From contig CAYVXU010000003.1 of the NCBI GenBank assembly GCA_964454705.1, positions 16,180 to 51,413 on the forward strand: a stretch of 35,234 nt of DNA, in the 5' to 3' direction. The notes under the pieces were generated by a model that searched no databases, was not told the origin of the DNA, and was given only the letters and a program-made list of their open reading frames with translations. Source of the DNA: an uncultured Candidatus Saccharibacteria bacterium (lineage in GTDB: Bacteria > Patescibacteriota > Minisyncoccia > CAYVXU01). Shown here one piece after another: positions 3,549 through 24,575 of the stretch; position 1 is the stretch's first letter; every line of letters begins with the position of its first letter. The position numbers and the translations under genes were made by a program.

Positions 3549-3643
3549 TCGTGCAGTAAACGCTTATCTAATAAACTTACTAGTGATATTATGGCTTTTA
3601 AAAGCCGCTATTCTGCTCTTCTGGCCCTTACTTTCAAAAAATA

Positions 3644-3659
3644 GTACTATATATAGTAT
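3644..3659. promoter_or_regulatory. NrdR box (operator) upstream of nrdR-nrdJ
   Basis: gTACTATATATAGTAt contains a 14-bp perfect palindrome (3645-3658) whose core CTATATATAG fits the published NrdR-box core CwAtATaTwG. It lies about 100 nt upstream of the nrdR ATG and overlaps a possible minus-strand promoter, TTGTAG-17-TACTAT. Confidence 0.6.
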
Positions 3660-3788
3660 GATAAATAATTTCTTCCTACAATCCTTCTCCATTGTATCCG
3701 TGCAGGGTGTTCTGTCAAGCAATGAAAAATACATGAAATCTACCTTGTTTAGTGATGATTTTGCACAAACTGTGGATAAGTTGAGTGG

Positions 3789-3899
3789 GGGCCTGCCTGC
3801 TTTTCTAGCGAATCATCATGGAGAAGTCCTTTTCGTGCCGGAACGGCAAATAAAGAAGTGAGGCTCCATGGCCGATTCGTCTGAAAAGCAGGCAGGTCT
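3789..3899 (+). ncRNA. Candidate structured RNA / conserved extended hairpin, copy A (family unknown)
   Basis: Nested pairings: P1 3792-3805/3883-3896 (14 bp), P2 3809-3814/3874-3879, P3 3817-3823/3864-3870, and an apical hairpin at 3837-3847. A second copy at 10970-11082 (-) shows compensatory changes. Confidence 0.5.
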
Positions 3900-3947
3900 A
3901 AGAGGGGGCTTGGCTATTTAAGAAGGTAGCATTTGAGGTAAAATTTG

Positions 3948-3976
3948 TTGACATGCTAAATCTTATATGATATAAG
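3948..3976 (+). promoter_or_regulatory. Sigma-70-type promoter for the 4051 gene
   Basis: TTGACA (3948-3953), a 17-nt spacer ending in TGa (extended -10), then TATAAG (3971-3976). It sits about 75 nt upstream of the GTG start at 4051. Confidence 0.45.
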
Positions 3977-4050
3977 TTTATATAGGTGGAATATAAGGTA
4001 TTTCTCCCCTATTTATTTAGCTATATTTATCCATCTAACAAACTACCAAC

Positions 4051-5109
4051 GTGGCAAACAACCACCCCCACAAAGTAGTCGAGGACGTCGTAAGACGACT
4101 TCCCCAAAGACCCCAGGACGTTATCATAAAACGCTTTGGGCTTGTTGATGGTGTCCGCAGGACGCTTGAATCCATCGGCCGCGAAGAGGGCATCACCCGC
4201 GAACGGGTACGGCAAATCGAGGCGGATGGCTTCCGGCATCTGCGCGCCAAGAAGGTTGAGGACCGGCTGCGCCCTTATCTTGACCGGCTCCACAAATATA
4301 TCGCCGAACGGGGCCATGTCGTGCGAGAATCACAGATATTCCGTGATCTCGGGCATGAGTTCGAACCCCGTTTTACAGGCAACGAAGAGTACCATCCGAC
4401 TATTTATTTTTTGCTTTCATACGGCGAGCCGTTTACCCGTGTCAGTGAATCCCCTAAGTTCCATGCGGCATGGGCAATTGACCGCGGGCGGCACGAGAAG
4501 GCCCAGCTTGCGCTTGAAAAGTTAGTAAAAGATCTTGAAGCAAAGAAATACCCGCACACGGAAGAAGAACTTACCGCCTCGCTTCGTACCGTATGCACGG
4601 AGGTGTTTGGCGAGTCGGTGCCTACCGAAGCATGCCGCGCCTACATCGGCATCTCCCGCGATATCCTTAAAAGTCCCTTTGGCCATTATGGACTTCGGCA
4701 GTGGGCGGAAATCAACCCGCGCGGAGTGCGCGATAAGGCCTATCTTGTGCTGCAGCGCGCAGCGAAACCCCTTCACTTCCGGGAGGTGACGGAGGAGATC
4801 AATAAAACAGGGTTTGCAAAGAGAACGGCGCATCCGCAAACGGTGCATAATGAACTCATTAAAGATCCGCGTTTTATTTTGGTAGGCCGCGGGAAATACG
4901 CATTGCGCGACTGGGGATATGAACCGGGTACGGTACGCGACGTACTCATCCGGATTTTAAAGGATGCTCCCCGTCCTCTTACCCGTGACGAGGTTATCGC
5001 GAAAGTGCTTGAGCAGCGGTTCGTGAAGCCTAACACCGTAGTGCTCAATTTGCAGAATAAGAACTACTTTAGGAGAGATGAGGGGGGTAGGTACACCGTG
5101 CGCGTCTAA
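4051..5109 (+). CDS. DNA-binding protein: N-terminal sigma-70 region-4 HTH plus C-terminal HARE-HTH / winged-helix repeats
   Basis: LPQRPQDVIIKRFGLVDGVRRTLESIGREEGITRERVRQIEADGFRHLR is a typical sigma70_r4 segment. KPLHFREVTEEI...HNELIKDPRFILVGRGKYALRDWGY is HARE-HTH-like. GTG start. Confidence 0.75.
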   Translation: MANNHPHKVVEDVVRRLPQRPQDVIIKRFGLVDGVRRTLESIGREEGITRERVRQIEADGFRHLRAKKVEDRLRPYLDRLHKYIAERGHVVRESQIFRDLGHEFEPRFTGNEEYHPTIYFLLSYGEPFTRVSESPKFHAAWAIDRGRHEKAQLALEKLVKDLEAKKYPHTEEELTASLRTVCTEVFGESVPTEACRAYIGISRDILKSPFGHYGLRQWAEINPRGVRDKAYLVLQRAAKPLHFREVTEEINKTGFAKRTAHPQTVHNELIKDPRFILVGRGKYALRDWGYEPGTVRDVLIRILKDAPRPLTRDEVIAKVLEQRFVKPNTVVLNLQNKNYFRRDEGGRYTVRV

Positions 5110-5199
5110 TCCACATAGCCGCTTCATTGAGATTCGTCTTTCGCTCCTGAAGCTTCTGCCAAGATCAGTACCAATCTAAGTCGGATCCCGACTACCGGA

Positions 5200-6468
5200 A
5201 TGTTATTTGAACCATTCGTTGTTATTGGAGGGCTGATTTTGAAGTACTGGTGGCTTCTTGCGCCGGTGCTCCTTTTTCCGCTGGCGTGGTATTTATGGGT
5301 TTTATACGTACAAAGTATCTATGCCGTCTCCCGGGTATGGGATACCTTTGAGATCCGCATTCCTAAGGAGGTAGAAAAGAGCCCCAAAGCCATGGAGCAG
5401 GTATTTGCCGCGCTCCACGGTATTCACAGCGGGAAAAATCTTATTGAGCAGTACTGGAAAGGAGAGTTTCAGGATCACGTAAGTTTTGAAATTGTAGGCA
5501 CCGAGGGGGAAACTCATTTTGCCGTCCATGCCCCCCGCAAATACCGTCGCATCATCGAGGCACAAATCTATGCCCAGTATCCGGATGCAGAGATTTCTGA
5601 TACGGAAGACTACACGAAGCGCCTTCCTTCTGAACTTCCCGATGAGGAATATGATATGTGGGGCACTGAACTTGAACTTACCAAACCTGATGCCTATCCT
5701 ATCCGGACCTACATGGCCTTTGAAGAAACCTTGTTGGAGCGACGTATTGATCCTATTGCTTCTTTACTCGAACTCTTCAGTAGCCTCCGGAGCCGGGAAC
5801 ATATATGGATCCAGTTTCTGCTTAAGCCTGTTACGGACGAGTGGAAAAAAGAAGGGGAAGAGATTATCGCCAAGATGGTCAAACAGCAGCGGCCCTCCCC
5901 GAGGAGCTTTTTTGCACCGGTTACCGACCTTATCCGCGATGTCGGGTCAATTCTTACGGGACTCGGCGGAGGCGAAGCCGAAGAAAGAGCTCCCGGAAAG
6001 GAGACTATCTTCAGCGATCTTACCGTAGGACAGCAGAAGATCGTGGAGGCGATTGAATTCAATATTGCAAAGCTCGGTTTTGAAACACGAATCCGGATTC
6101 TCTATATCGCGCCCCGGAGTATCATCGCCCGCGCCACCATCTCGGGCATCTTTGGGGCATTCAAGCAATTCGGTTCCACCAACTTAAATGGATTTAAACC
6201 CAATAAGAAAGTGAGTACGAAGATTGACTACTTTTTTGTAAAGACCCGGGAACTCTATCGAAAGCAAAAAATCTACAAAGCCTATCGCGGAAGAAGCTTT
6301 GTGACCGCAAATCCCGGCATATTCCGCCCCGATAAACTCTTTGTGCTCAATACCGAGGAACTCGCTACGGTCTATCACTTCCCGGGGCTTGTTGCGCGCG
6401 CCCCCCTCATACCCCGCATTGAAGCCAAGAAAGCCGAGCCCCCCTCACGACTCCCGCGGGTGGAGTAA
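5200..6468 (+). CDS. Membrane protein (two N-terminal TM helices) partnered with the downstream coupling-protein-like ATPase
   Basis: 422 aa. Hydrophobic N-terminus (VVIGGLILKYWWLLAPVLLFPLAWYLWVLYV), then FEIRIPKEVEKSPKAMEQVFAALHG. It is 64 nt upstream of the ATPase on the same strand. Confidence 0.7.
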   Translation: MLFEPFVVIGGLILKYWWLLAPVLLFPLAWYLWVLYVQSIYAVSRVWDTFEIRIPKEVEKSPKAMEQVFAALHGIHSGKNLIEQYWKGEFQDHVSFEIVGTEGETHFAVHAPRKYRRIIEAQIYAQYPDAEISDTEDYTKRLPSELPDEEYDMWGTELELTKPDAYPIRTYMAFEETLLERRIDPIASLLELFSSLRSREHIWIQFLLKPVTDEWKKEGEEIIAKMVKQQRPSPRSFFAPVTDLIRDVGSILTGLGGGEAEERAPGKETIFSDLTVGQQKIVEAIEFNIAKLGFETRIRILYIAPRSIIARATISGIFGAFKQFGSTNLNGFKPNKKVSTKIDYFFVKTRELYRKQKIYKAYRGRSFVTANPGIFRPDKLFVLNTEELATVYHFPGLVARAPLIPRIEAKKAEPPSRLPRVE

Positions 6469-6532
6469 GATGTCTTATCTATTGATACGCGTACTCGCTT
6501 TCTCTCTCGCAATGCGTTAGAATATTTTTGAT

Positions 6533-8233
6533 ATGAATCCAGAACCTACCGTGCAAGCTCCATTAGTACCCCAGCAGGAAGAAATCACGGTCTTTGCAGA
6601 GACCAATTTTCGCAACCGCCGGATTCCCTTCGGCATCAAACGGCGGGACCGGCGCCAACACATGTATGTGATCGGCAAAACCGGCATGGGGAAGACCACC
6701 TTTCTTGAAAACCTGGCAGCACAGGATCTGCAGCGCGGCAACGGAGTGGGCATTGTGGACCCGCACGGCGAATTTGCTGAAAAAATGCTCGATGTCATAC
6801 CAATGTCGCGTACGAATGACGTGATTTATTTCAACCCGGCGGACCTCAATTACCCTATTGCCTTTAATGTGATGGAAAAGGTTGATCCGGAGTATCGGCA
6901 TCTCGTAGCGTCGGGTCTGGTGGGCGTTTTTAAAAAGCTCTGGGCAGAAACATGGGGCCCGCGCCTTGAATACGTGCTCCGCAACGCAATTCTCGCGCTT
7001 CTCGAATACCCCGGCTCCACGCTCCTATCCATTATGCGGATGCTTACCGATAAGGATTTCAGGAAGAAAGTAATTGCCTATATTAAAGACCCGGTCGTAA
7101 AGGCATTTTGGACCGATGAATTTCAGAAGTATCCTGACCGGTTCATGGCCGAAGCAGTCGCTCCGATTCAGAATAAGGTGGGACAATTTATCACAAGCCC
7201 CCTTATCCGCAACATCATCGGCCAGACCAAGTCAGCCGTGGATATGCGGGAGGTGATGGATCAGGGCAAGATTCTTATCATGAACCTCTCCAAAGGCAGG
7301 ATTGGAGAAGATAACTCTGCGCTCCTCGGGGCCATGCTCATCACCAAAATACAGCTTGCCGCCATGAGCCGTGTGGATGTCCCTGAATCAGAACGGAGAG
7401 ACTTTTACCTTTACGTAGACGAGTTTCAAAATTTCGCAACAGAGTCGTTTGCAACTATTCTCTCGGAGGCGAGAAAATACCGCCTCAACCTCGTGCTCGC
7501 CCATCAGTATATTACGCAGATGAGCGAGACAGTCCGTGATGCGGTGTTTGGAAACGTCGGCACGATGATATGCTTCCGGATCGGTGCCGCTGACGCTGAA
7601 TTCCTTGAAAAAGAATTTCAGCCGGAGCTTACCGCCGATGATCTGGTGAATCTTGGATTTCCAAACGTCTACCTCAAGCTGCTCATCGACGGTGTGGCTT
7701 CACGCCCGTTTAGCGCGACTACCCTCCCGCCCATCGCAAAAAGCGAGGTGAGTAACAAAGAGGTGATTATACGGGTATCCCGCGAGCGGTACGCGAGCGA
7801 CCGTGAGGAGGTAGAAGATAAAATCGCGCGCTGGAGCGGCATGGTGGAGGAGTCCGCCGAGAGGGCAGATATGCGGGGAGGCGCTTCCCTCCCGCGACGC
7901 AGTGATACCTCTGCAGCGCACGAACCCCGCGATACCGCACCCTCTGCGCCCCCGAGAAGGGGGGGAGAAGATGAGCGGCGAAGCGGACGCAGGGAGCCCC
8001 GAGGCGGCCGGCGTGAACTGCGTGACAAAGCTCCTCAAATTCACTCTGAGCCAAAGATTCTTGACGACGGCTCAAAGAAGGTTTCGCTGGCTCAAGCCCT
8101 GAAACAGACACCGGCTCCTCTGCAACCTGCGCATGACTCCGGCGGTGAAAAAAAACGCAAAGAGGTAAACCTCGAAGAGCTCCGGCAGCTGCTCACCGAT
8201 GTCACTAAAGGTGGTGAAGAGCAGAGGAGTTAG
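6533..8233 (+). CDS. VirD4/TraG/TraD-family (type IV coupling protein-like) P-loop ATPase lacking its own TM segment
   Basis: Walker A VIGKTGMGKTT and Walker B FYLYVDEFQNF, followed by ARKYRLNLVLAHQY. The C-terminal ~130 aa form an Arg/Glu/Gly-rich low-complexity tail. Confidence 0.85.
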   Translation: MNPEPTVQAPLVPQQEEITVFAETNFRNRRIPFGIKRRDRRQHMYVIGKTGMGKTTFLENLAAQDLQRGNGVGIVDPHGEFAEKMLDVIPMSRTNDVIYFNPADLNYPIAFNVMEKVDPEYRHLVASGLVGVFKKLWAETWGPRLEYVLRNAILALLEYPGSTLLSIMRMLTDKDFRKKVIAYIKDPVVKAFWTDEFQKYPDRFMAEAVAPIQNKVGQFITSPLIRNIIGQTKSAVDMREVMDQGKILIMNLSKGRIGEDNSALLGAMLITKIQLAAMSRVDVPESERRDFYLYVDEFQNFATESFATILSEARKYRLNLVLAHQYITQMSETVRDAVFGNVGTMICFRIGAADAEFLEKEFQPELTADDLVNLGFPNVYLKLLIDGVASRPFSATTLPPIAKSEVSNKEVIIRVSRERYASDREEVEDKIARWSGMVEESAERADMRGGASLPRRSDTSAAHEPRDTAPSAPPRRGGEDERRSGRREPRGGRRELRDKAPQIHSEPKILDDGSKKVSLAQALKQTPAPLQPAHDSGGEKKRKEVNLEELRQLLTDVTKGGEEQRS

Positions 8234-8295
8234 TGGCGCTGCCAGTTCAAAGTTAAAAGTGTAAAGTTACAGCAGCTATTCCAACGCTCATTTCC

Positions 8296-8394
8296 AATTT
8301 TCAATTCTCAATTTTCAATAAATTTTTAATGCTTCAATGACCCAATTGAAAATTAATGCAGTGAAAATTGGATGAAAATTGTAAATTGAAAATT
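8296..8394. repeat. Array of six TGAAAATT / AATTTTCA 8-mers in inverted arrangement
   Basis: AATTTTCA at 8296 and 8310. TGAAAATT at 8347, 8362, 8373 and 8387. The arms can pair: 8293-8303 with 8362-8372, and 8310-8319 with 8345-8354. Confidence 0.6.
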
Positions 8395-8426
8395 TTTCTA
8401 CAGACCCAAGCTAAGTAGCTAGGTAG

Positions 8427-8483
8427 CCCCGACGCATCTTACGGTCGGGGTCCCGATCTTCAACTCAGTTGAAGCATCGGGAC
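8427..8483. terminator. Two abutting GC-rich stem-loops between convergent genes (putative bidirectional terminator)
   Basis: ccccgac/gtcgggg (8427-8433/8444-8450), then gtcccgatcttcaac/gttgaag-c-atcgggac (8450-8464/8468-8483). No clear U-run on either strand. Confidence 0.4.
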
Positions 8484-8503
8484 TAACGAAGCTAAAAGCT
8501 ATC

Positions 8504-9073
8504 TTACGTGGCTTTCTCCACCCGCTCCACATATTCGCCGGTGCGGGTATTTACTCGTACGATATCTCCCGTATCAATAAAGAGAGGTACCTGTATCGTA
8601 GCTCCCGATTCTAGTGCCACTGCCTTCGTGCCCCCCTGTGCGGTATCCCCTTTCACGCCGGGTGGCGCCTCCACCACCTTAAGATCAAGTTTGATGGGAA
8701 GCGCCACGGTAAGAATCGATCCCTCGTAAGTGACTGCCTCCAGCGCAAGGCCCGGCTTGAGGAACCGTACCGCATCACCGAGCTTTTTTTCATCGAGTTC
8801 GAAGCGCTCCTTGCTTCCCTGTGGTGAAAACACATACGTCCCACGATGATGGTAGATAAAGGTAATGGGTGAACGGACAATGTCCGCCTCTTCAAACTTT
8901 TCCGACTGAAGAAAATTTTTCTGGAAAACATTTCCGGTGCGCAGATTGCGGATTTTTGTCTGCAATACCGCCCGGCGCTGGGCTACTTTGGAGTGCGATA
9001 TCTCAAGCGCCTCATAGGGTTCGCTCTCGTACACAAAAAATGTTCCGGGCCGTAAATCGTTAATGGTAAGCAT
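8504..9073 (-). CDS. efp: Elongation factor P
   Basis: 189 aa from ATG 9073: MLTINDLRPGTFFVYESEPYEALEISHSKVAQRRAVLQTKIRNLRTGNVF...VEAPPGVKGDTAQGGTKAVALESGATIQVPLFI. This is full-length EF-P embedded in the 630-aa ORF. Confidence 0.93.
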   Translation of the reverse strand: MLTINDLRPGTFFVYESEPYEALEISHSKVAQRRAVLQTKIRNLRTGNVFQKNFLQSEKFEEADIVRSPITFIYHHRGTYVFSPQGSKERFELDEKKLGDAVRFLKPGLALEAVTYEGSILTVALPIKLDLKVVEAPPGVKGDTAQGGTKAVALESGATIQVPLFIDTGDIVRVNTRTGEYVERVEKAT

Positions 9074-10396
9074 GGACGTAACAGAAAATAATGAAAACGC
9101 ACCATTGTGCGCAACTATAGTATAGAAAAACTGCGTTCGATACGCAATATTCAAATATTCGATTATGTTTTGATCGCAGTGGTGAAATACCAACAACGCT
9201 TCCCGGTGAGGGAAGCGTTGTTGGTAGAGTTTGAGCTTGATATCAATTTTTCCGCGCAAGTCTCCCTTTATCCCTCCGGTGGGAGTGGATGTGAAGGCAG
9301 GAGACGGGGAAAGCCGGCTTTGAGGGGGAGTGGGTGAGGGAGAGACGGTGATAAGAGGTGACACCGAAGGAGCTGATCCCCTGTCGGAAGCCGCCGATGG
9401 CCTACTCAAGCGGAGTTTAGACTGGGTACGAATGAAAATCCTAATTTCTCCAGCACGGGCGTGAGCCTCCTGGAAGCGGGCAAACGCCTCTCCGTATGCT
9501 TCCTGTGCGAGATTCTTTTTCCCCTCTGCAAGTACGTCCGTCACACCGGAAAGTTCGGCTTGCGCATATAGAAGCGCCTCTGCAGTCAACGTGCCTCGCT
9601 TTGCCTCAAAGAAATTGCCCACTTCGCGTGCGGTACGTTCCGCGGCCCGAAGTTTTGCTTCGGCAATGTGTTTCCCTTGCGACTTCTCGCGCCTGGCAAC
9701 CTTGAGTGTGATGTTCGCATTCGTTTTCTGCGTTGTTTTGAGCTGGGTATGCACCTTCTCAAGGAGCGCCGTTACCGGTGTATCCCTTTCTTGTTCCTTC
9801 TCTTTAAGCTGGGCAAGCACCCGCGCATGCGCACGCAGCGACGACTCTACTTCGGCATTCTCCTCGGCGGCGCCCTCGGTACTCTCATCTTCGAGTGCTT
9901 CAATTGCCTCATTCGCGGCGGCAAGATGCGAGACAAGGTGGAATTCGATAATCACACGGGCATCGTGGTTCAGTTTCCCTTCGCTCGCAAGCGTCTCTGC
10001 TTCTTCCAACCGCCGCTGTGCTCGTTGCGTCTCCCACGAAGCTTTGCTTTTCGAAGAAATTTTTGCGACTCCCTGCACCTCTTCGTTTACCCGTACCTTT
10101 ATCGGGTAGAGCATGTCACCCGGCAGCGATCCCTCTGCGGCATACGATATGCTCGCGCCGGTAATAAGGAGTACAATAAGTGCTAATGGCATAGGTCGTA
10201 GAATGAATTGGTGGATCAACGAGAATATCCGTTGCGCAACCAAGTTTTCTCCCTCCCTGTGACGTGCAGCCATTTCACTCCTTACCGGATGGGTCTGCAT
10301 ATACGAAATAATCGCATCCCTCACTGTGGTGCGTTCGTGAAACGAGAGTCTTATAGTACGCGCCTTTTTGGCGAGATCATTTAATTCTTTTTCCAT
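9074..10396 (-). CDS. DUF5667-type single-pass membrane protein, putative anti-sigma partner of the ECF sigma; 3' end undefined (no in-frame stop before efp)
   Basis: Short cytoplasmic N-terminus, one TM (PMPLALIVLLITGASISYA), an LPGDMLYPIK motif, a coiled-coil region and a Pro/Ser-rich tail. The ATG at 10396 overlaps the sigma gene end by 20 nt. Confidence 0.6.
9119..9147 (-). promoter_or_regulatory. Putative efp promoter
   Basis: On the minus strand: TTGCGT (9147-9142), a 17-nt spacer, TATACT (9124-9119). It lies about 45 nt upstream of the efp ATG. Confidence 0.45.
9188..9226 (-). terminator. 17-bp perfect stem-loop (terminator-like) upstream of the efp promoter
   Basis: taccaacaacgcttccc / gggaagcgttgttggta with a 5-nt loop. 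On the minus strand it is followed by tttcacc. Confidence 0.5.
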
Positions 10397-10886
10397 ACGT
10401 TATCTGTGTGCGAAGGGCATGCACGCCCCGATGGATCCTTACCGAGATTACATTCGGACTTACTCCAAGAATACCGGCGATTTCACTCACGGAGTAACCT
10501 TCAATATACCGCATGAGCATTACCTCGCGGTACGCCGCCGGCAATTTCTGCACGTGATCAAGCACCTCCCGCTCCTCTGCGAATGCGTAAGAGTGATCGC
10601 CCCGATGATGCGTAGGCGGATCAAAACCCTGTTCCGCGAGTGCCTCGAGTGAGTACTCCTTCTTCTTGCGCGCGTGATCGATAATGAGGTTGTTCGCAAT
10701 CCGGTAAAGATACGCCCGCATGTTATTCACTTGCGCACCCTCGCACATGCTCTTCCACGCCTTAATAAACGTCTCCTGTAAAAGCTCTTTTGCCCGCTCG
10801 CGGTCGTACACGCGGAAGTAGCAGTGTCGGAAAAGAGGATCGGCGAGCTCTTCGTATGCGCGCAGAAATTCCTCCTCTTGCTGCAT
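10377..10886 (-). CDS. ECF-type sigma-70 family sigma factor
   Basis: Region 2 (FRHCYFRVYDRERAKELLQETFIKAW...YLYRIANNLIIDHARKK) and region 4 (LPAAYREVMLMRYIEGYSVSEIAGILGVSPNVISVRIHRG). I prefer the start at M21 (10886). The ORF track starts at 10946. Confidence 0.85.
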   Translation of the reverse strand: MQQEEEFLRAYEELADPLFRHCYFRVYDRERAKELLQETFIKAWKSMCEGAQVNNMRAYLYRIANNLIIDHARKKKEYSLEALAEQGFDPPTHHRGDHSYAFAEEREVLDHVQKLPAAYREVMLMRYIEGYSVSEIAGILGVSPNVISVRIHRGVHALRTQITYGKRIK

Positions 10887-10969
10887 AGTAATGAGACGTA
10901 AATACCCTAATAAAATTACTTCTCCGCAGGTCGAGTACTCTACCATTTCCTAGGTAGTCCAGCAAGTAT

Positions 10970-11082
10970 AAATCACCGCCTACCAAAGACGAATCGGTGT
11001 GTGGAGCCTCACTTTTATATTTGCCGTTCCGGCAAGGTAGCGGACTTCTCCACAATGATTCGCTATTGGCAGGCGGTGATTT
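10970..11082 (-). ncRNA. Candidate structured RNA / conserved extended hairpin, copy B
   Basis: P1 is 17 bp (11066-11082/10970-10986, with one G-U pair). The same internal blocks as copy A appear in the same order. It fills the gap between the receiver gene stop (11096) and the sigma gene. Confidence 0.5.
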
Positions 11083-11095
11083 TAGTATTCCTGTA

Positions 11096-11470
11096 CTAAA
11101 GGCGTGCCTTTATTTTGGTGACTATCTCCCCGATGGTGCGGCCGGTTTTCTCGAAGTAATACACCGGCGCATGCTCAATGATGCCTTTTACGATTTTTTT
11201 GTTCACCCCAAGATTCGTGAGGAGAATGATCGGAATATTCCTCCCCCATCGCTCTTTGCGCAGTTTCTCCATCATGGTGATACCGTCCATCTTCGGCATA
11301 AGAATATCAAGGAGAATGAGGTCGGGCTTCTCCTTCTTTGCAAGAGAAAGACCCTCCTTGCCGTCTCGCGCTTCAATTACCGCAAAGCCCTCATATAGTA
11401 GGTTGTCTTTGAGGATGGCGCGAAGGGGCGCTTCATCTTCAACGATGAGGATTTTTTTCACTTTCGGCAT
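11096..11470 (-). CDS. Stand-alone response regulator receiver (CheY-like)
   Basis: KILIVEDEAPLRAIL...PDLILLDILMPKMDGITMMEKLR... with no output domain. Confidence 0.9.
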   Translation of the reverse strand: MPKVKKILIVEDEAPLRAILKDNLLYEGFAVIEARDGKEGLSLAKKEKPDLILLDILMPKMDGITMMEKLRKERWGRNIPIILLTNLGVNKKIVKGIIEHAPVYYFEKTGRTIGEIVTKIKARL

Positions 11471-11494
11471 GCGACTGAATAATAGCTTACTTTC

Positions 11495-14400
11495 CTATAA
11501 CGTGTGGGGGCGTTGATTATTACCGAGAGGAAAGGCAACATAAAAGGTGGTGCCTCTGTTTTTTTCCGACTCAAACCATATCTTTCCTTTCATGAGCTCA
11601 ACTACCAGTTTTACGATATAGAGGCCAAGCCCTGTGCCGTCGTGCCCTTTTTTCTTTACGTTATCAGCACGGAAAAATTTTGTAAATATTCTCCCCTGCG
11701 TGGCTTTGGGTATTCCGTGGCCGGTATCGGTCACCGTGAGCACCGCACATTTTTCATCTATTTTCTCCCCTCCAAAACTGTCTCCTTCTTCGGCAAGGTA
11801 CATATCAAGGTCTACCTTCCCGTGCGCAGGGGTGTATTTGATTGCGTTGGAAAGAAGATTCTCAATAATTATCCGCACGAGATTCGGATCAAGATGCAGA
11901 GAAGGAATTCCTTTGTCGTATTTCTGGTTGAAGTGGATTTTCTTTTTCACCACGAAGGGCCTTATTTCGCTTGCAATCGCGCGGGCGGTTTCCACCATGC
12001 TCATATCCTCCGGTTCAACGCTGAACGTGCCGAGTTCAAGACGTGATACATTGAGAAGCGCATTTACCATTCGCGCCATCCGCTGGCTCGCTCCGTAAAT
12101 CTGCTCAAGATATTCACGCTGCCTCCTGTCGACGCTCACTACCCTCCCTTTGAGCAGGGTTTCTGCATACCAGTTAATAGTCGAAATGGGGGTGCGGAGC
12201 TGGTGGGAAGCAAGGGAGACAAACTCTTCTTTTGCCGTATCAACTGCTTTTTCCTGTGTCACATCGCGAAAGATAGAAATTGCTCCAATTACTTTGTCGC
12301 GAAGAATGATCGGAGATGCGGTAATAGCAACAGGAAACTTTCTGTTGTCGCGCCGCACACAGACATACTCGTCGGTAACCACTTTTTTGCCGGTTTTTAA
12401 GGCAATCATCAAAGGACGTTTTTCCAGCGCAATCCGGTTGCCCGCATCGTCCAAGAGCAAAATGCTGTGCGCGTAAAGTTTTCCCTTGAGTGCGTCTCCT
12501 TTTACCCGGAGTAATTTCTGGGCCTGCTCATTGAGGAAGATAATTTTCCCCCGCGCGTCTACCGCCACCACTCCTTCCCCAATACTCCCGAGCAGCGCCT
12601 CATCTTTTACCTTCGCATGCTCTTCGGCTTTCAGGCGTTCATTGAGCTCACGGGTACGCTCGATCACTTTTTTTTGCAGCGTTTTATTGTACTCGCGAAG
12701 CTTTTTTTCAAGGCGCTTGCGCTCGGTGATGTCAAAGAGTGTGGTGCGCGTCATGATAAACCTCCCGTCTTTATCCCGGATTGAGGTAGCGTTTACCGAT
12801 ACCGGCATTACCGTGCCATCCTTACGCACATATTCCATTTCAAGGTCACGAATCCATCCTTGTTTCATAAACCGAGGAAAGCATATGTGGAACTTTTTCA
12901 CGCTCTGGGGCGTCATAAGGTCGGTAATTTTTTTCTTCCCTACCAGCTCTTCGCGGGTATATCCGAGCCACGCAAGCTCTGTATCATTGATTTGCACAAT
13001 GGTATGATCCCGTGAGATTGAGTGATATCCGCACGGCGCATTATTGTAGAGATCGCTGATCTCCTCCATATTTTCGTAGAGTTTCCGCTCGGCAGCGCGC
13101 TTATCAGTCACATCGTGCACGATGGCGATAAACTGAGACTGACGCGGCCCGGTGAGCCGCTGAAGAGCTATCTCTACTTCCACAAGCGATCCGTCTTTGC
13201 GCTGCAATACCCGCTCCGTCCTGGTTGTTCCCTCGCTTTTGATCAGGCGGATAAGTCGGACGGATGAAGTGGCGCGTTCAGCCGGCGCAAGGAGCGGTTC
13301 GAAGTTAGGAAGCGAAAAAAGTTCTTCACGTGCATACTTCACGATCCGGCAAAAGGCATCGTTCACAAAGGTAAAACGCCTTGTGCGAATGTCGAAAACG
13401 CACACCCCGCTTCCGAGGTCGCTCTGCGCCTGAATGAGCGATTTCTGGAGATCCATTTCGCTCGTGAGCTGTTCCTCCGTCTCTTTGCGGTCGGTAATAT
13501 CCACTGAAAACATAACTACGTTTATCACTCTGCCGGTGCGTTTGATAGGGCCGATCCGCGTAAGAAACCAGCCGGTGCGTCCGTGCGCAGCGATTCCTTT
13601 CATCTCTGCCGTCATACCTTCACCGCTGCGAAAGACCTGCTCGATCATTCGTTTGAGTTTGCGTCGTTCTTCCGGAAGCGCCCAATGGTAAATATAGGTC
13701 CCCAGTACCTGCCCCACGGTAAGAGGAGGAAAGGTACGGTTAATGAAAAGTATCACTCCCTCCCGATTGAGTACGGAAATAATCTCGGGCGCGTTCATAA
13801 CAAGTGAACGCCACTCTTCTTCGGCCTGTTGGAGAGCGTGTTGCGCTTTTTTGCGTTCGGTAATATCCCGGATGACCATAATACAATTTCCCCCTTCATT
13901 TCCCCTCACTGCTTTCATCGATATTTCAACGGTAATCCGCTTCCCGTCCTTGCGGCGAATGACTGACTCAAACACCACCGCACTCTCCACGCCGGCCCGC
14001 AAAAGCCTCCGGTGTCGCTCAAAGTTCTTTTGCTCCTCACGAGGAAGCGTGCGTTTAAGATAGTCCGGCATTGAAAGAAGCGCCTCCCGGGTAATACCAT
14101 GGAGCATGCAAAACGCGTCGTTGACATGGAACAGCTTTCCACCCTTGAAGTTAAGCATCGCTACTCCCTCTCCCAGATCGCTTTGCGCCCGCAGCAGATT
14201 GTCATAGAGGTCACGCTGGAGACGAAGCGCGCTGGTACGGTATTTTACTTTTTTCTCAAGAACGCTGTTGAGCCGTTCAAGCTCTCTCAACTTTTCGCGG
14301 ATAACCTCAAGCGTAGTCTGCACCCCTACATAAACGTCAGTAAATTCATCCTCAAGCGGGGGGACTTTTACATCATGGGTAAAGTCCCCGATTGAGATCC

Positions 14401-14509
14401 ATGCGAGATAATTGACAATTTCACTTACTCTCTTCCTTACATACGTTCGGTAGTCCTGGACGCTCGCTACGGACGGGGACAATGTTTTTACCGCGGCCTC
14501 CTTTTTCAT
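11495..14509 (-). CDS. Cytoplasmic sensor histidine kinase with five PAS domains
   Basis: 1004 aa with no TM segment. Five PAS-like repeats each end in ...DITERK/DVTDKR-type motifs. HisKA (FVSLASHQLRTPISTI) and HATPase_c (DTGHGIP...GTGLGLYIVKLVVELMKG) follow. Confidence 0.9.
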   Translation of the reverse strand: MKKEAAVKTLSPSVASVQDYRTYVRKRVSEIVNYLAWISIGDFTHDVKVPPLEDEFTDVYVGVQTTLEVIREKLRELERLNSVLEKKVKYRTSALRLQRDLYDNLLRAQSDLGEGVAMLNFKGGKLFHVNDAFCMLHGITREALLSMPDYLKRTLPREEQKNFERHRRLLRAGVESAVVFESVIRRKDGKRITVEISMKAVRGNEGGNCIMVIRDITERKKAQHALQQAEEEWRSLVMNAPEIISVLNREGVILFINRTFPPLTVGQVLGTYIYHWALPEERRKLKRMIEQVFRSGEGMTAEMKGIAAHGRTGWFLTRIGPIKRTGRVINVVMFSVDITDRKETEEQLTSEMDLQKSLIQAQSDLGSGVCVFDIRTRRFTFVNDAFCRIVKYAREELFSLPNFEPLLAPAERATSSVRLIRLIKSEGTTRTERVLQRKDGSLVEVEIALQRLTGPRQSQFIAIVHDVTDKRAAERKLYENMEEISDLYNNAPCGYHSISRDHTIVQINDTELAWLGYTREELVGKKKITDLMTPQSVKKFHICFPRFMKQGWIRDLEMEYVRKDGTVMPVSVNATSIRDKDGRFIMTRTTLFDITERKRLEKKLREYNKTLQKKVIERTRELNERLKAEEHAKVKDEALLGSIGEGVVAVDARGKIIFLNEQAQKLLRVKGDALKGKLYAHSILLLDDAGNRIALEKRPLMIALKTGKKVVTDEYVCVRRDNRKFPVAITASPIILRDKVIGAISIFRDVTQEKAVDTAKEEFVSLASHQLRTPISTINWYAETLLKGRVVSVDRRQREYLEQIYGASQRMARMVNALLNVSRLELGTFSVEPEDMSMVETARAIASEIRPFVVKKKIHFNQKYDKGIPSLHLDPNLVRIIIENLLSNAIKYTPAHGKVDLDMYLAEEGDSFGGEKIDEKCAVLTVTDTGHGIPKATQGRIFTKFFRADNVKKKGHDGTGLGLYIVKLVVELMKGKIWFESEKNRGTTFYVAFPLGNNQRPHTL

Positions 14510-14536
14510 ATTTTATATATAGAAGATCATCGATAA

Positions 14537-14899
14537 TTATTCAAGAAGCCAGGCCTCTGCATCCCGCCGTGATGGAAAATAGCGCACTTTCTGCCCTACA
14601 CCAGAGGCGATGATAATGAGATGGATGAGATGGCGCAGAAAAAGGCCGCCGCCGGTGATCGCGACCTTTTCATATGGAAGATGGTGAAGTTTTTCTACGA
14701 CTGATTTTCGGACGTCAGAAGTTGTGGTAGTGACATGTGTCGCATCGAAAAGTACCAAGCGGGGTTTTCCCTCTTTATGAAGGATGTGAAGCAAGCGCTG
14801 AATGGTTTTGCCAGCTTCTTCGATGGAGTCGAACGTCTGCGGGCCGTTGTAGTTCACCTCCACATAGCCTTTTTTATTGAGAGTAAACTTATTTGGCAT
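14537..14899 (-). CDS. STAS / SpoIIAA-like domain protein
   Basis: 120 aa from ATG 14899 (MPNKFTLNKKGYVEVNYNGPQT...), ending ...KVRYFPSRRDAEAWLLE, which is typical of the SpoIIAA-like family. It is the first gene of the kinase operon. Confidence 0.6.
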   Translation of the reverse strand: MPNKFTLNKKGYVEVNYNGPQTFDSIEEAGKTIQRLLHILHKEGKPRLVLFDATHVTTTTSDVRKSVVEKLHHLPYEKVAITGGGLFLRHLIHLIIIASGVGQKVRYFPSRRDAEAWLLE

Positions 14900-15132
14900 G
14901 TGACGGAATAGTAACGCTGCGCTCTTCTGTGTACAATCCTGCACAAATCCTCTCTCTTGCCTGCCCGACTCGCGTCATTCAGGTGGACCTGCCTGACTGA
15001 AGTTGTTCCCCGCCAGAAGGACTCTGTCGGGCTTGGGGCGGGCGGGGAGAAGCTAATGAAGCCTCCCTGAAAGCTAACACTGCATATGCACGAAAACAAA
15101 AATATGGTACCATAGAAGAAATCCGCTCATCC

Positions 15133-15801: not shown

Positions 15802-15814
15802 AAACAGTAAAAAG

Positions 15815-15841
15815 AAAAACCCTCCCACCAAGAGGGTTTTT
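15815..15841. terminator. Rho-independent terminator (bidirectional shape)
   Basis: aaaaaccctc / gagggttttt form a 10-bp stem with loop ccaccaa, followed by tcttttat. Confidence 0.75.
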
Positions 15842-15948
15842 CTTTTATGTATACTGCTCTCTTGCACGCGCGCAAAGCAATTTTGCAAACCTCTTTAACG
15901 AGGCGATTTCGCCTCTTCTTCCAAGGACAATAATTCGCGACTTAGGTT

Positions 15949-24544: not shown

Positions 24545-24575
24545 GCGGCTGGAACATATATCATGTTCCAGCCGC
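24545..24575. terminator. 13-bp perfect stem-loop between convergent genes
   Basis: gcggctggaacat / atgttccagccgc with loop atatc. On the minus strand it is followed by tttcctttag. Confidence 0.55.

Follow-up and report, generated by a model that had tools for sequence, protein, structure and literature searches.

A repeated hairpin with apparently constrained pairing upstream of two sigma-like genes in a Candidatus Saccharibacteria bacterium: a candidate structured RNA

Two copies of a hairpin element of about 110 nt are present in the window analysed here, a stretch of 35,234 nucleotides from an uncultured Candidatus Saccharibacteria bacterium (GCA_964454705.1, contig CAYVXU010000003.1). 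The pairing of the outer stem and the remaining bases of the core, both paired and unpaired, look selectively maintained. The pattern of substitutions between the copies appears to be that of a functional structured nucleic acid and not that of a recently copied repeat. The element has no match to any Rfam family and can be regarded as a candidate orphan. Our preferred reading, which we hold tentatively and at somewhat below an even chance, is that it is a lineage-restricted structured RNA acting in cis.

Copy B occupies positions 10970..11082 on the minus strand (113 nt) and consists of a stack of three helices (P1-P2-P3), an internal loop and an apical hairpin closed by a GAA triloop. Copy A (3790..3898, plus strand, 109 nt), whose boundary was set with a covariance model, has the same architecture. 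The two copies could be aligned end to end, and 66 of the 79 nucleotides of their core are identical (84%). They form the sole long repeat pair across the window, and their similarity is far beyond chance. Both copies are also present in GCA_005239765.1, a second, independent NCBI assembly of the same organism, and copy B was found identical in two Logan assemblies of other runs; orientation and sequence were the same in all four assemblies. This recovery of the same sequence from an independent NCBI assembly and from two Logan assemblies indicates that the element is not an assembly artefact. Reading the 35-kb stretch together with the overlapping contigs of the second assembly gave a copy count of two. 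Over the 13 kb compared, the window and GCA_005239765.1 differ by only three clustered substitutions (3320, 3328 and 3331), all in nrdR. The copies are inverted relative to each other, and the 7-kb segment between them (3899-10969) contains the sigma4-HARE-HTH/DUF8128/T4CP-like cluster and the efp, anti-sigma and sigma genes.

Both copies are predicted to fold into very stable structures, with an MFE of -59.9 kcal/mol (z -10.1) for copy B and of -61.8 kcal/mol (z -9.1) for copy A, and none of 200 dinucleotide shuffles folded as stably. In copy B (all positions on the minus strand), P1 is formed by the 5' arm AAAUCACCGCCUGCCAA (11066..11082) and the 3' arm UUGGUAGGCGGUGAUUU (10970..10986), which pair over 17 bp with one G-U. 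P2 pairs GCGAAUC (11057..11063) with GAUUCGU (10989-10995) over 7 bp, one G-U included, and P3 pairs UGUGGAG (11048..11054) with CUCCACA (11000-11006) over 7 bp. The corresponding helices of copy A, on the plus strand, are P1 at 3790-3805/3883-3898 (16 bp, one G-U), P2 at 3808-3814/3874-3880 and P3 at 3817-3823/3864-3870. A 2-nt UA junction separates P1 from P2 and a 2-nt AU junction separates P2 from P3. P2 is invariant between the copies; its 3' arm plus CU is the location of the CGUCU block singled out in an earlier note on this DNA. The internal loop, whose 5' and 3' strands measure 12-13 nt and 15 nt, separates P3 from the apical hairpin UGCCG-GAA-CGGCA, which contains GGAAC and is also invariant (11022..11034, minus strand, in copy B; 3836-3848, plus strand, in copy A). 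The 5' strand of the loop in copy B (11035-11047) comprises AAGUCC and a variable 7-nt patch, while its 3' strand AAUAUAAAAGUGAGG (11007-11021) is conserved at 13 of 15 positions. The predicted fold of this conserved loop is inconsistent between the MFE structures of the two copies. P3 pairs an SD-like GGAG with an anti-SD-like CUCC. A mini-ORF is present in both copies (3835-3861, plus strand, and 11035-11015, minus strand), in which GUG or UUG is followed by CCG-GAA-CGG-CAA-AUA; it starts 11-12 nt past the GGAG of P3 and would encode M-P-E-R-Q-I, with K-K added in copy A. This mini-ORF probably arises from the conservation of the sequence itself and does not encode a leader peptide.

We then compared the substitutions between the copies with the modelled pairs. 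Once aligned in the correct register, each copy can form every one of the 35 pairs. Both sides have changed in 15 of these 35 pairs, a number which, with n=2 copies, is too small for R-scape-type covariation statistics. Thirteen of the double changes are in P1 and two in P3, where, from copy A to copy B, a C-G pair becomes U-A and an A-U pair becomes G-C. Sliding the 3' partners by 1-3 columns reduced pairing to 30-40% and the double changes to 0-2. The P1 arms are identical at only 5 of 32 positions, at or below the random level, yet they are fully paired in each copy. Differences between unpaired core bases are concentrated at two places, the 7-nt patch that precedes the apical hairpin (2/7 identical) and the short junction on the 3' side of P3. 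Positions free of constraint look saturated, so that purifying selection, and not recent copying, appears to have kept the conserved bases, unpaired ones included. The earlier description of the element as a conserved, structurally constrained hairpin is upheld by the compensatory changes in P1 and P3.

Copies A and B both fold more stably, by 5.7-6.2 kcal/mol, as the strand sense to their flanking genes than as its complement, because the G-U pairs of the stems (one in each P1 and one shared in P2) are replaced by A-C mismatches in the complement. Each copy has the same sense as the gene that follows it, and the preference of the G-U pairs for this strand counts in support of the structured element that had been proposed. 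The GC content of the element (0.50-0.52) exceeds that of the rest of the spacers (0.33-0.39); a GC-rich island in AT-rich surroundings is typical of structured RNAs. Strand bias and GC island argue for a molecule that runs in gene direction and is either RNA or single-stranded DNA; selection on the latter would leave an identical signature.

Relatives of the element were searched for in RNA family, genome, metagenome, virus and protein collections. No match was obtained with Rfam 15 over the whole window at gathering thresholds. Relaxing the cut-off to E up to 10 for both copies yielded only weak matches of hairpin shape, for the most part to microRNA precursor models, the best reaching 23 bits against a gathering threshold of 110, and no SRP, 6S or Y RNA was among them. 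Collection scans, which required 20-22 specified bases to be exactly conserved, returned for the exact-core pattern a single match in 185,579 GTDB species genomes, located in a coding region of Burkholderiales and judged to be due to chance, and four in JGI metagenomes, which are coding-like, lack the flanking blocks of the element and were also judged to be chance; the core patterns gave one chance match in IMG/VR. Comparison of copy B and its tail with plasmid and phage records by blastn gave no match. A covariance model, R1, was built from copies A and B, and the score of 130.8 bits for copy B is therefore circular. Applied to the loci around homologous ECF sigma and sigma4-HARE-HTH genes and to the contigs of the same organism, R1 retrieved only the copies of the same organism and generic hairpins at 17 bits or less; the nearest relatives sampled are distant (54-59% protein identity). 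A 470-aa concatenate of the six-frame translations of both copies, aimed at spurious ORFs overlapping other copies, matched nothing among 5.8 billion proteins at E up to 10. A literature search found no papers. Further copies beyond the same organism were not found, so the survey could show no enrichment of the element beside sigma-like or signalling genes. As far as these searches reach, that is, among distant relatives and with 20-22 bases needed exactly, the element appears to be lineage-restricted.

Copy B is located inside a gene array of the minus strand. Upstream of it are a STAS/SpoIIAA-like gene (14537-14944), a PAS histidine kinase gene (11495-14509, 1004 aa, five PAS) and a single-domain response-regulator receiver gene (11096..11470), whose stop codon TAG (11098-11096) is held in a TTAGTA-N6-TACTAA hairpin (11082..11099, arms 11099-11094/11087-11082) that shares one base with P1 of copy B. 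The P1 stem begins 13 nt past this stop codon. Downstream are the ECF sigma factor gene (10377..10946), which carries the Pfam domains Sigma70_r2 and Sigma70_r4_2 and belongs to NCBIfam ECF families, and a DUF5667 anti-sigma-like ORF. The distance from the end of copy B is 24 nt to ATG 10946 and 83-84 nt to ATG 10886. ECF sigma homologs have lengths of 159-230 aa and cover about 85% of the 189-aa ORF, and ATG 10886 is thus favoured as the probable start of the sigma gene. The earlier note had placed the receiver stop, the hairpin and copy B correctly on the minus strand, and its 17-bp P1 starting at 11082, its distances of 24 nt to 10946 and 84 nt to 10886, and its preference for 10886 as the more plausible start agree with our measurements and with the lengths and coverage of the homologs. 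A promoter scan found no promoter-like site between the receiver stop and copy B. Given the 13-nt gap from the receiver stop, the co-transcription with the kinase and receiver genes that had been suggested is the simplest assumption.

The organism was taken to be a CPR bacterium close to Peribacteria. The closest homologs of the ECF sigma are 54-58% identical, some of them named Peribacterales or Peribacteria, and in all relatives examined the sigma/DUF5667 pair is solitary, with no kinase, receiver or element beside it. The arrangement of the STAS-like, kinase and receiver genes (11096-14944, minus strand) directly upstream of an ECF sigma/anti-sigma pair was not seen in the sigma loci of the relatives examined. 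The DUF5667 anti-sigma-like ORF (8504-10396, minus strand) reads without a stop into a complete EF-P (residues 442-626, beginning MLTINDLRPG). This ORF is 630 aa long in both NCBI assemblies; most relatives examined have separate DUF5667-type proteins of 377-429 aa. The DUF5667 and EF-P parts are joined in frame by a stretch that includes a perfect 17-bp hairpin (9188-9226) and AT-rich sequence of non-coding appearance, pointing to loss of a stop codon and not to a purposeful fusion. Copy B is bordered on either side by ATACT (11088-11084 and 10969-10965, minus strand; one additional base intervenes at the 5' end), a 5-nt direct repeat that could represent a target-site duplication; no comparable flanking duplication was found at copy A.

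Copy A is located in a divergent spacer, with nrdR on one side and the sigma4-HARE-HTH gene (4051..5109, plus strand, GTG 4051) on the other, and has no upstream gene on its own strand. The 352-aa product of the latter gene combines an N-terminal RpoD-type sigma region 4 with a C-terminal HARE-HTH (RNAP delta-like) domain. Its family comprises more than 6,800 proteins, all named members being from CPR lineages. Other CPR genomes contain a conserved cluster running from secD-secF through sigma4-HARE-HTH and DUF8128 to a T4CP-like ATPase, the counterpart of which in the window spans 4051-8233. Here the divergent nrdR replaces secDF upstream, and copy A lies exactly at that synteny break. The element was absent upstream of the sigma4-HARE-HTH gene in the relatives examined; in the closest ortholog (59% identity) the upstream spacer measures 48 nt. 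An AT-rich inverted repeat with (AATTTTC)n/(GAAAATT)n arms is present at 8296-8394, between the convergent T4CP-like and efp genes, and a 113-nt hairpin with the same (AATTTTC)n motif follows the DUF8128 gene of a distant CPR genome, GCA_964551555.1 (5335-5447 of the examined locus). This repeat may be a CPR-wide terminator-like or repeat element tied to the gene cluster.

The two copies lie 84-152 nt upstream of the only two Sigma70_r4-domain genes found in the window among 20 large ORFs scanned. The interpretation given earlier is supported here in that the downstream product of each copy has a sigma-70 region 4 domain. Random intergenic placement upstream of both genes has p ~0.002-0.005, a rough, post hoc value since the category was defined after looking.

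An ECF promoter had been considered as a DNA-level explanation of the conserved blocks. In such promoters a GGAAC-like -35 and a CGTC-like -10 are about 16-17 nt apart. In the element, the apical hairpin contributes GGAAC, and the 3' strand of P2 together with the junction contributes CGTCT, at a gap of 33 nt in copy A and 34 nt in copy B. This measurement agrees with the spacing of about 33 nt that the earlier note had itself thought too long for one promoter, and rules out the element as an ECF promoter. The promoter-bearing reading fails likewise: there is no GGAAC-N14-19-CGTC at either copy, the one such site of the window lying away from both (12889-12914). A putative ECF-promoter-like sequence, GTAAT-N16-CGTCTC (10893..10920, minus strand), is found between copy B and ATG 10886. 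Its GTAAT-N16-CGTC core (10919-10895), which ends 8 nt before this ATG, is the single match of the window against 1.4 expected, that is, at chance level, and only its position is suggestive; no ECF promoter motif common to the upstream regions of the relatives' sigma genes was evident. The 8-mer GGAGAAGT of the P3 and loop of the element recurs at 10918-10925 (minus strand), between copy B and the sigma start, where it overlaps the -35-like part of this sequence, with no equivalent at copy A. Between copy A and GTG 4051, a sigma-70-like sequence, TTGACA (3948-3953)-N17-TATAAG (3971-3976) with a TG at 3968-3969, occupies 3948..3976 on the plus strand. The earlier note had called it a good sigma-70 promoter; the sequence is present, but "good" is somewhat generous, as the consensus scanner did not call it, the second hexamer ending in G. 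Upstream of copy A there is only a weak promoter-like site (3633-3662, 9/12 matches).

Each downstream gene may thus own a promoter 3' of the element, to judge from these consensus matches. The presence of promoter-like sites between copy and gene in both cases weakens a direct gating of sigma expression, which is unproven. If those promoters are used, the downstream genes are mostly transcribed without the element, and copy B would then lie near the 3' end of the kinase-receiver transcript or within a read-through product.

The terminator scan called nothing at copy A, which is not followed by a U tract, and at copy B it flagged only a partial stem with the tail UGAUUUAUAC. With no hairpin-plus-U-tract called at either copy, the element does not have the form of an intrinsic (rho-independent) terminator. 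Other gene ends of the window carry short GC hairpins, some at least with T runs (e.g. 15810-15846 and 24545-24575). The element is a different kind of structure from these short GC hairpins, which are the typical terminators here. The similarity of the flanks between the copies is at chance level (p = 0.23 for the 3' tail, p = 0.41 for the 5' flank). A 5' promoter shared by both copies was dropped on the latter value, and a conserved 3' tail with a small hairpin (CUAYY...GGUAG) on the former, its folds not being significant. The absence of a conserved promoter or terminator from the repeat unit, together with the chance-level flanks, points to a cis element rather than to a self-contained sRNA gene.

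We compared the element with known hairpin families. ERIC (IRU) and Correia (NEMIS) sequences are transcribed intergenic hairpin repeats of enterobacteria and Neisseria, of 100-150 nt, that form imperfect long hairpins. They are found in operon spacers, are co-transcribed with their neighbours and can be RNase III substrates or alter mRNA stability or expression. They have conserved terminal inverted repeats and tens to hundreds of copies, Correia elements also having TA target duplications. The element resembles them in length, long-hairpin shape and intergenic place. In contrast, its termini are unrelated between the copies, two copies are known, there is no consistent duplication, and no sequence similarity was seen. 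Compared with MITE-type repeats (Correia, ERIC, RUP) in general, conservation is reversed, with 5/32 identical positions in P1 against 66/79 in the core. REP/BIME palindromes are intercistronic mRNA stabilisers, as in malE-malF; REPs measure about 35-40 nt, are sequence-conserved and highly repeated, and are associated with RAYT transposases. Like them, copy B is a stable hairpin just past an upstream stop codon (13 nt), and it could shield the upstream mRNA from 3' exonucleases and uncouple expression within the operon. Unlike them, the element is three times longer (109-113 nt), has a conserved non-helical head and an outer stem unrelated between copies, and no transposase domain, RAYT-type included, was detected in the 20 large ORFs scanned.

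Riboswitches and protein-binding leaders show the same pattern of conservation, namely a closing stem that varies in sequence while its pairing is kept, and junction and loop nucleotides that do not vary, and the element is likewise upstream of and sense to a gene. It differs from them in that no Rfam match, no expression platform and no cross-species conservation were found. With regard to a 5' UTR location, promoter-like sequences (consensus matches only) lie between element and gene in both copies. With regard to an aptamer conserved across species, R1 had no match in the homologous loci examined, from relatives 54-59% identical, and pattern matches were due to chance only. The 4.5S SRP, 6S and Y RNAs resemble the element in being single hairpins, some 110 nt long, that contain internal loops and are conserved at the apex; it differs from them by its two divergent copies instead of one and by its operon placement, and, by eye, it lacks the domain IV motifs of SRP RNA. 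In its mode of action the element may come closest to the transcribed hairpin repeats of intergenic regions (ERIC, Correia, and REP in mRNA stabilisation), while its conservation pattern seems most like that of riboswitch-type leaders. It departs from the families compared in features that define them, namely conserved termini, expression platform, cross-species conservation and covariance-model scores, and its copy number in the stretch read is two.

Other explanations have to be weighed against a cis-acting RNA. The element could be an intergenic palindromic repeat of the MITE, REP, ERIC or Correia kind that is selfish or was once mobile, or a small insertion into pre-existing hairpins, with incidental effects on its neighbours. 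We consider this fairly unlikely, although much in its distribution would fit: it is dispersed, intergenic, hairpin-shaped and of suitable size, is confined to one lineage and absent from the corresponding sites of relatives, ATACT surrounds copy B, and both copies occur where gene order differs from the relatives examined. A P1 derived from the target, by insertion into a hairpin loop, would moreover explain the unrelated P1 stems without selection at the RNA level. Yet the ends, which a transposase would have to recognise, are the least conserved part, copy A is without a flanking duplication, and the 35 kb contain two copies with no other repeat family or transposase. Two compensatory pairs are located in P3, inside the core, and saturated unconstrained positions in an otherwise invariant core are unlike recent transposition. 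The GCCTGCC heptamer common to both P1 stems is not an enriched motif of the genome (7 found, 5.3 expected), and a family of target palindromes based on it was dropped. An explanation at the level of double-stranded DNA, as an operator or cruciform, an ECF promoter, or inverted repeats delimiting an invertible or mobile 7-kb segment (3899-10969), appears very improbable. It would account for the operator-like palindrome TGCCG-GAA-CGGCA, for the likeness of GGAAC and CGTCT to ECF -35 and -10 cores, and for the inverted copies that bracket the sigma4-HARE-HTH/DUF8128/T4CP-like cluster and the efp, anti-sigma and sigma genes. However, the spacing of the two motifs is 33-34 nt instead of 16-17, and a double-stranded site needs neither compensatory stem changes nor strand-specific G-U pairs. 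A crossover in the core between inverted copies would yield mismatched P1 hybrids, whereas both P1 stems are perfectly paired, from which we infer that no inversion through the shared core has occurred since the copies diverged. No recombinase or transposase domain turned up among the ORFs scanned, and the four assemblies show a single orientation, unlike what an invertible segment would give. A foreign island was dropped, as the 7-kb segment has the composition of its surroundings and its sigma4-HARE-HTH/DUF8128/T4CP genes are a conserved chromosomal cluster of CPR genomes.

Two further explanations keep the element as an RNA. A specific cis-regulator of sigma-like genes, that is, a leader RNA sensing a ligand or a protein (e.g. 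sigma region 4, in an autoregulation) and controlling read-through or translation, seems quite unlikely to us. The location of both copies 84-152 nt upstream of, and sense to, the two Sigma70_r4 genes argues for it, with the post hoc p value given above, as do the conserved unpaired bases, which suggest specific recognition, and the GGAG paired with CUCC in P3. Against it, promoter-like sequences between element and gene may place the element outside the main downstream transcript, the copies share neither a terminator nor an expression platform sequestering a start codon (no U tract follows copy A, and the flanks are at chance level), homologs of both genes in other CPR genomes examined are without the element, and the sigma-like category was defined after looking. 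Within the same line of thought, a new class of regulatory RNA bound by sigma region 4, with the ECF sigma and the sigma4-HARE-HTH protein each binding the GGAAC head upstream of its own gene, is a long shot. If true, the two genes would control themselves at the RNA level, or region 4 would be titrated by an RNA decoy, in a phylum where transcriptional regulation has hardly been explored. We regard it as distinctly improbable that the element is an independent small RNA gene, present as two paralogues and acting in trans or by sequestering a protein. The orphan position of copy A, with no same-strand gene upstream and a promoter-like site downstream, the strongly conserved core, and a size and closed-hairpin shape reminiscent of 4.5S, Y and 6S-type RNAs are consistent with such a gene; they are opposed by dissimilar flanks with no promoter or terminator common to the copies, by the position of copy B inside an operon 13 nt past a stop codon, and by Rfam scores that remained below gathering thresholds, with no SRP, 6S or Y RNA at relaxed ones.

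For the cis-acting structured RNA that we prefer, the starting points are the repeat, the fold, the selection for pairing, the strand bias and the gene context, which are directly observed; transcription, recognition by a protein or RNase and an effect on expression are what we infer. Copies A and B would be ancient paralogues of one structured RNA, some 110 nt long, and would share the direction of transcription of their neighbours. Transcripts of copy B would arise most simply by read-through from the STAS-kinase-receiver operon, the stop codon of which is 13 nt upstream. Transcription of copy A is an assumption, as no same-strand gene precedes it and the one promoter-like site there is weak. 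P1, P2 and P3, stacked into an almost unbroken helix of about 30 bp, would present the internal loop (AAGUCC... / AAUA..AAGUGAGG) and the UGCCG-GAA-CGGCA hairpin, and this conserved head, loop and GAA-triloop hairpin together, is probably a recognition module for a protein or RNase. The element would then act in cis on the transcript that carries it, as a point of processing, stabilisation or insulation that sets the upstream transcription unit apart from the downstream sigma-like gene, for which a separate promoter seems to exist. The existence of only two copies, with no homolog in any other genome searched, counts against this reading.

The element is a clean candidate structured RNA resting on two copies of one organism; comparison of these copies points to a fold under selection, and a regulatory role is unproven. 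To our knowledge, almost nothing is known of non-coding RNAs or post-transcriptional control in CPR bacteria, which have small genomes and few regulators. Should the element prove to be only a dispersed palindromic repeat, it would represent a repeat family without conserved termini, which is unusual for mobile elements. As an RNA, a conserved head on a covarying closing stem, found twice beside RNA-polymerase-associated genes, would be a concrete candidate for post-transcriptional control in CPR. In that role, it would show the coupling or insulation of a two-component module and an ECF sigma/anti-sigma pair within one gene array.
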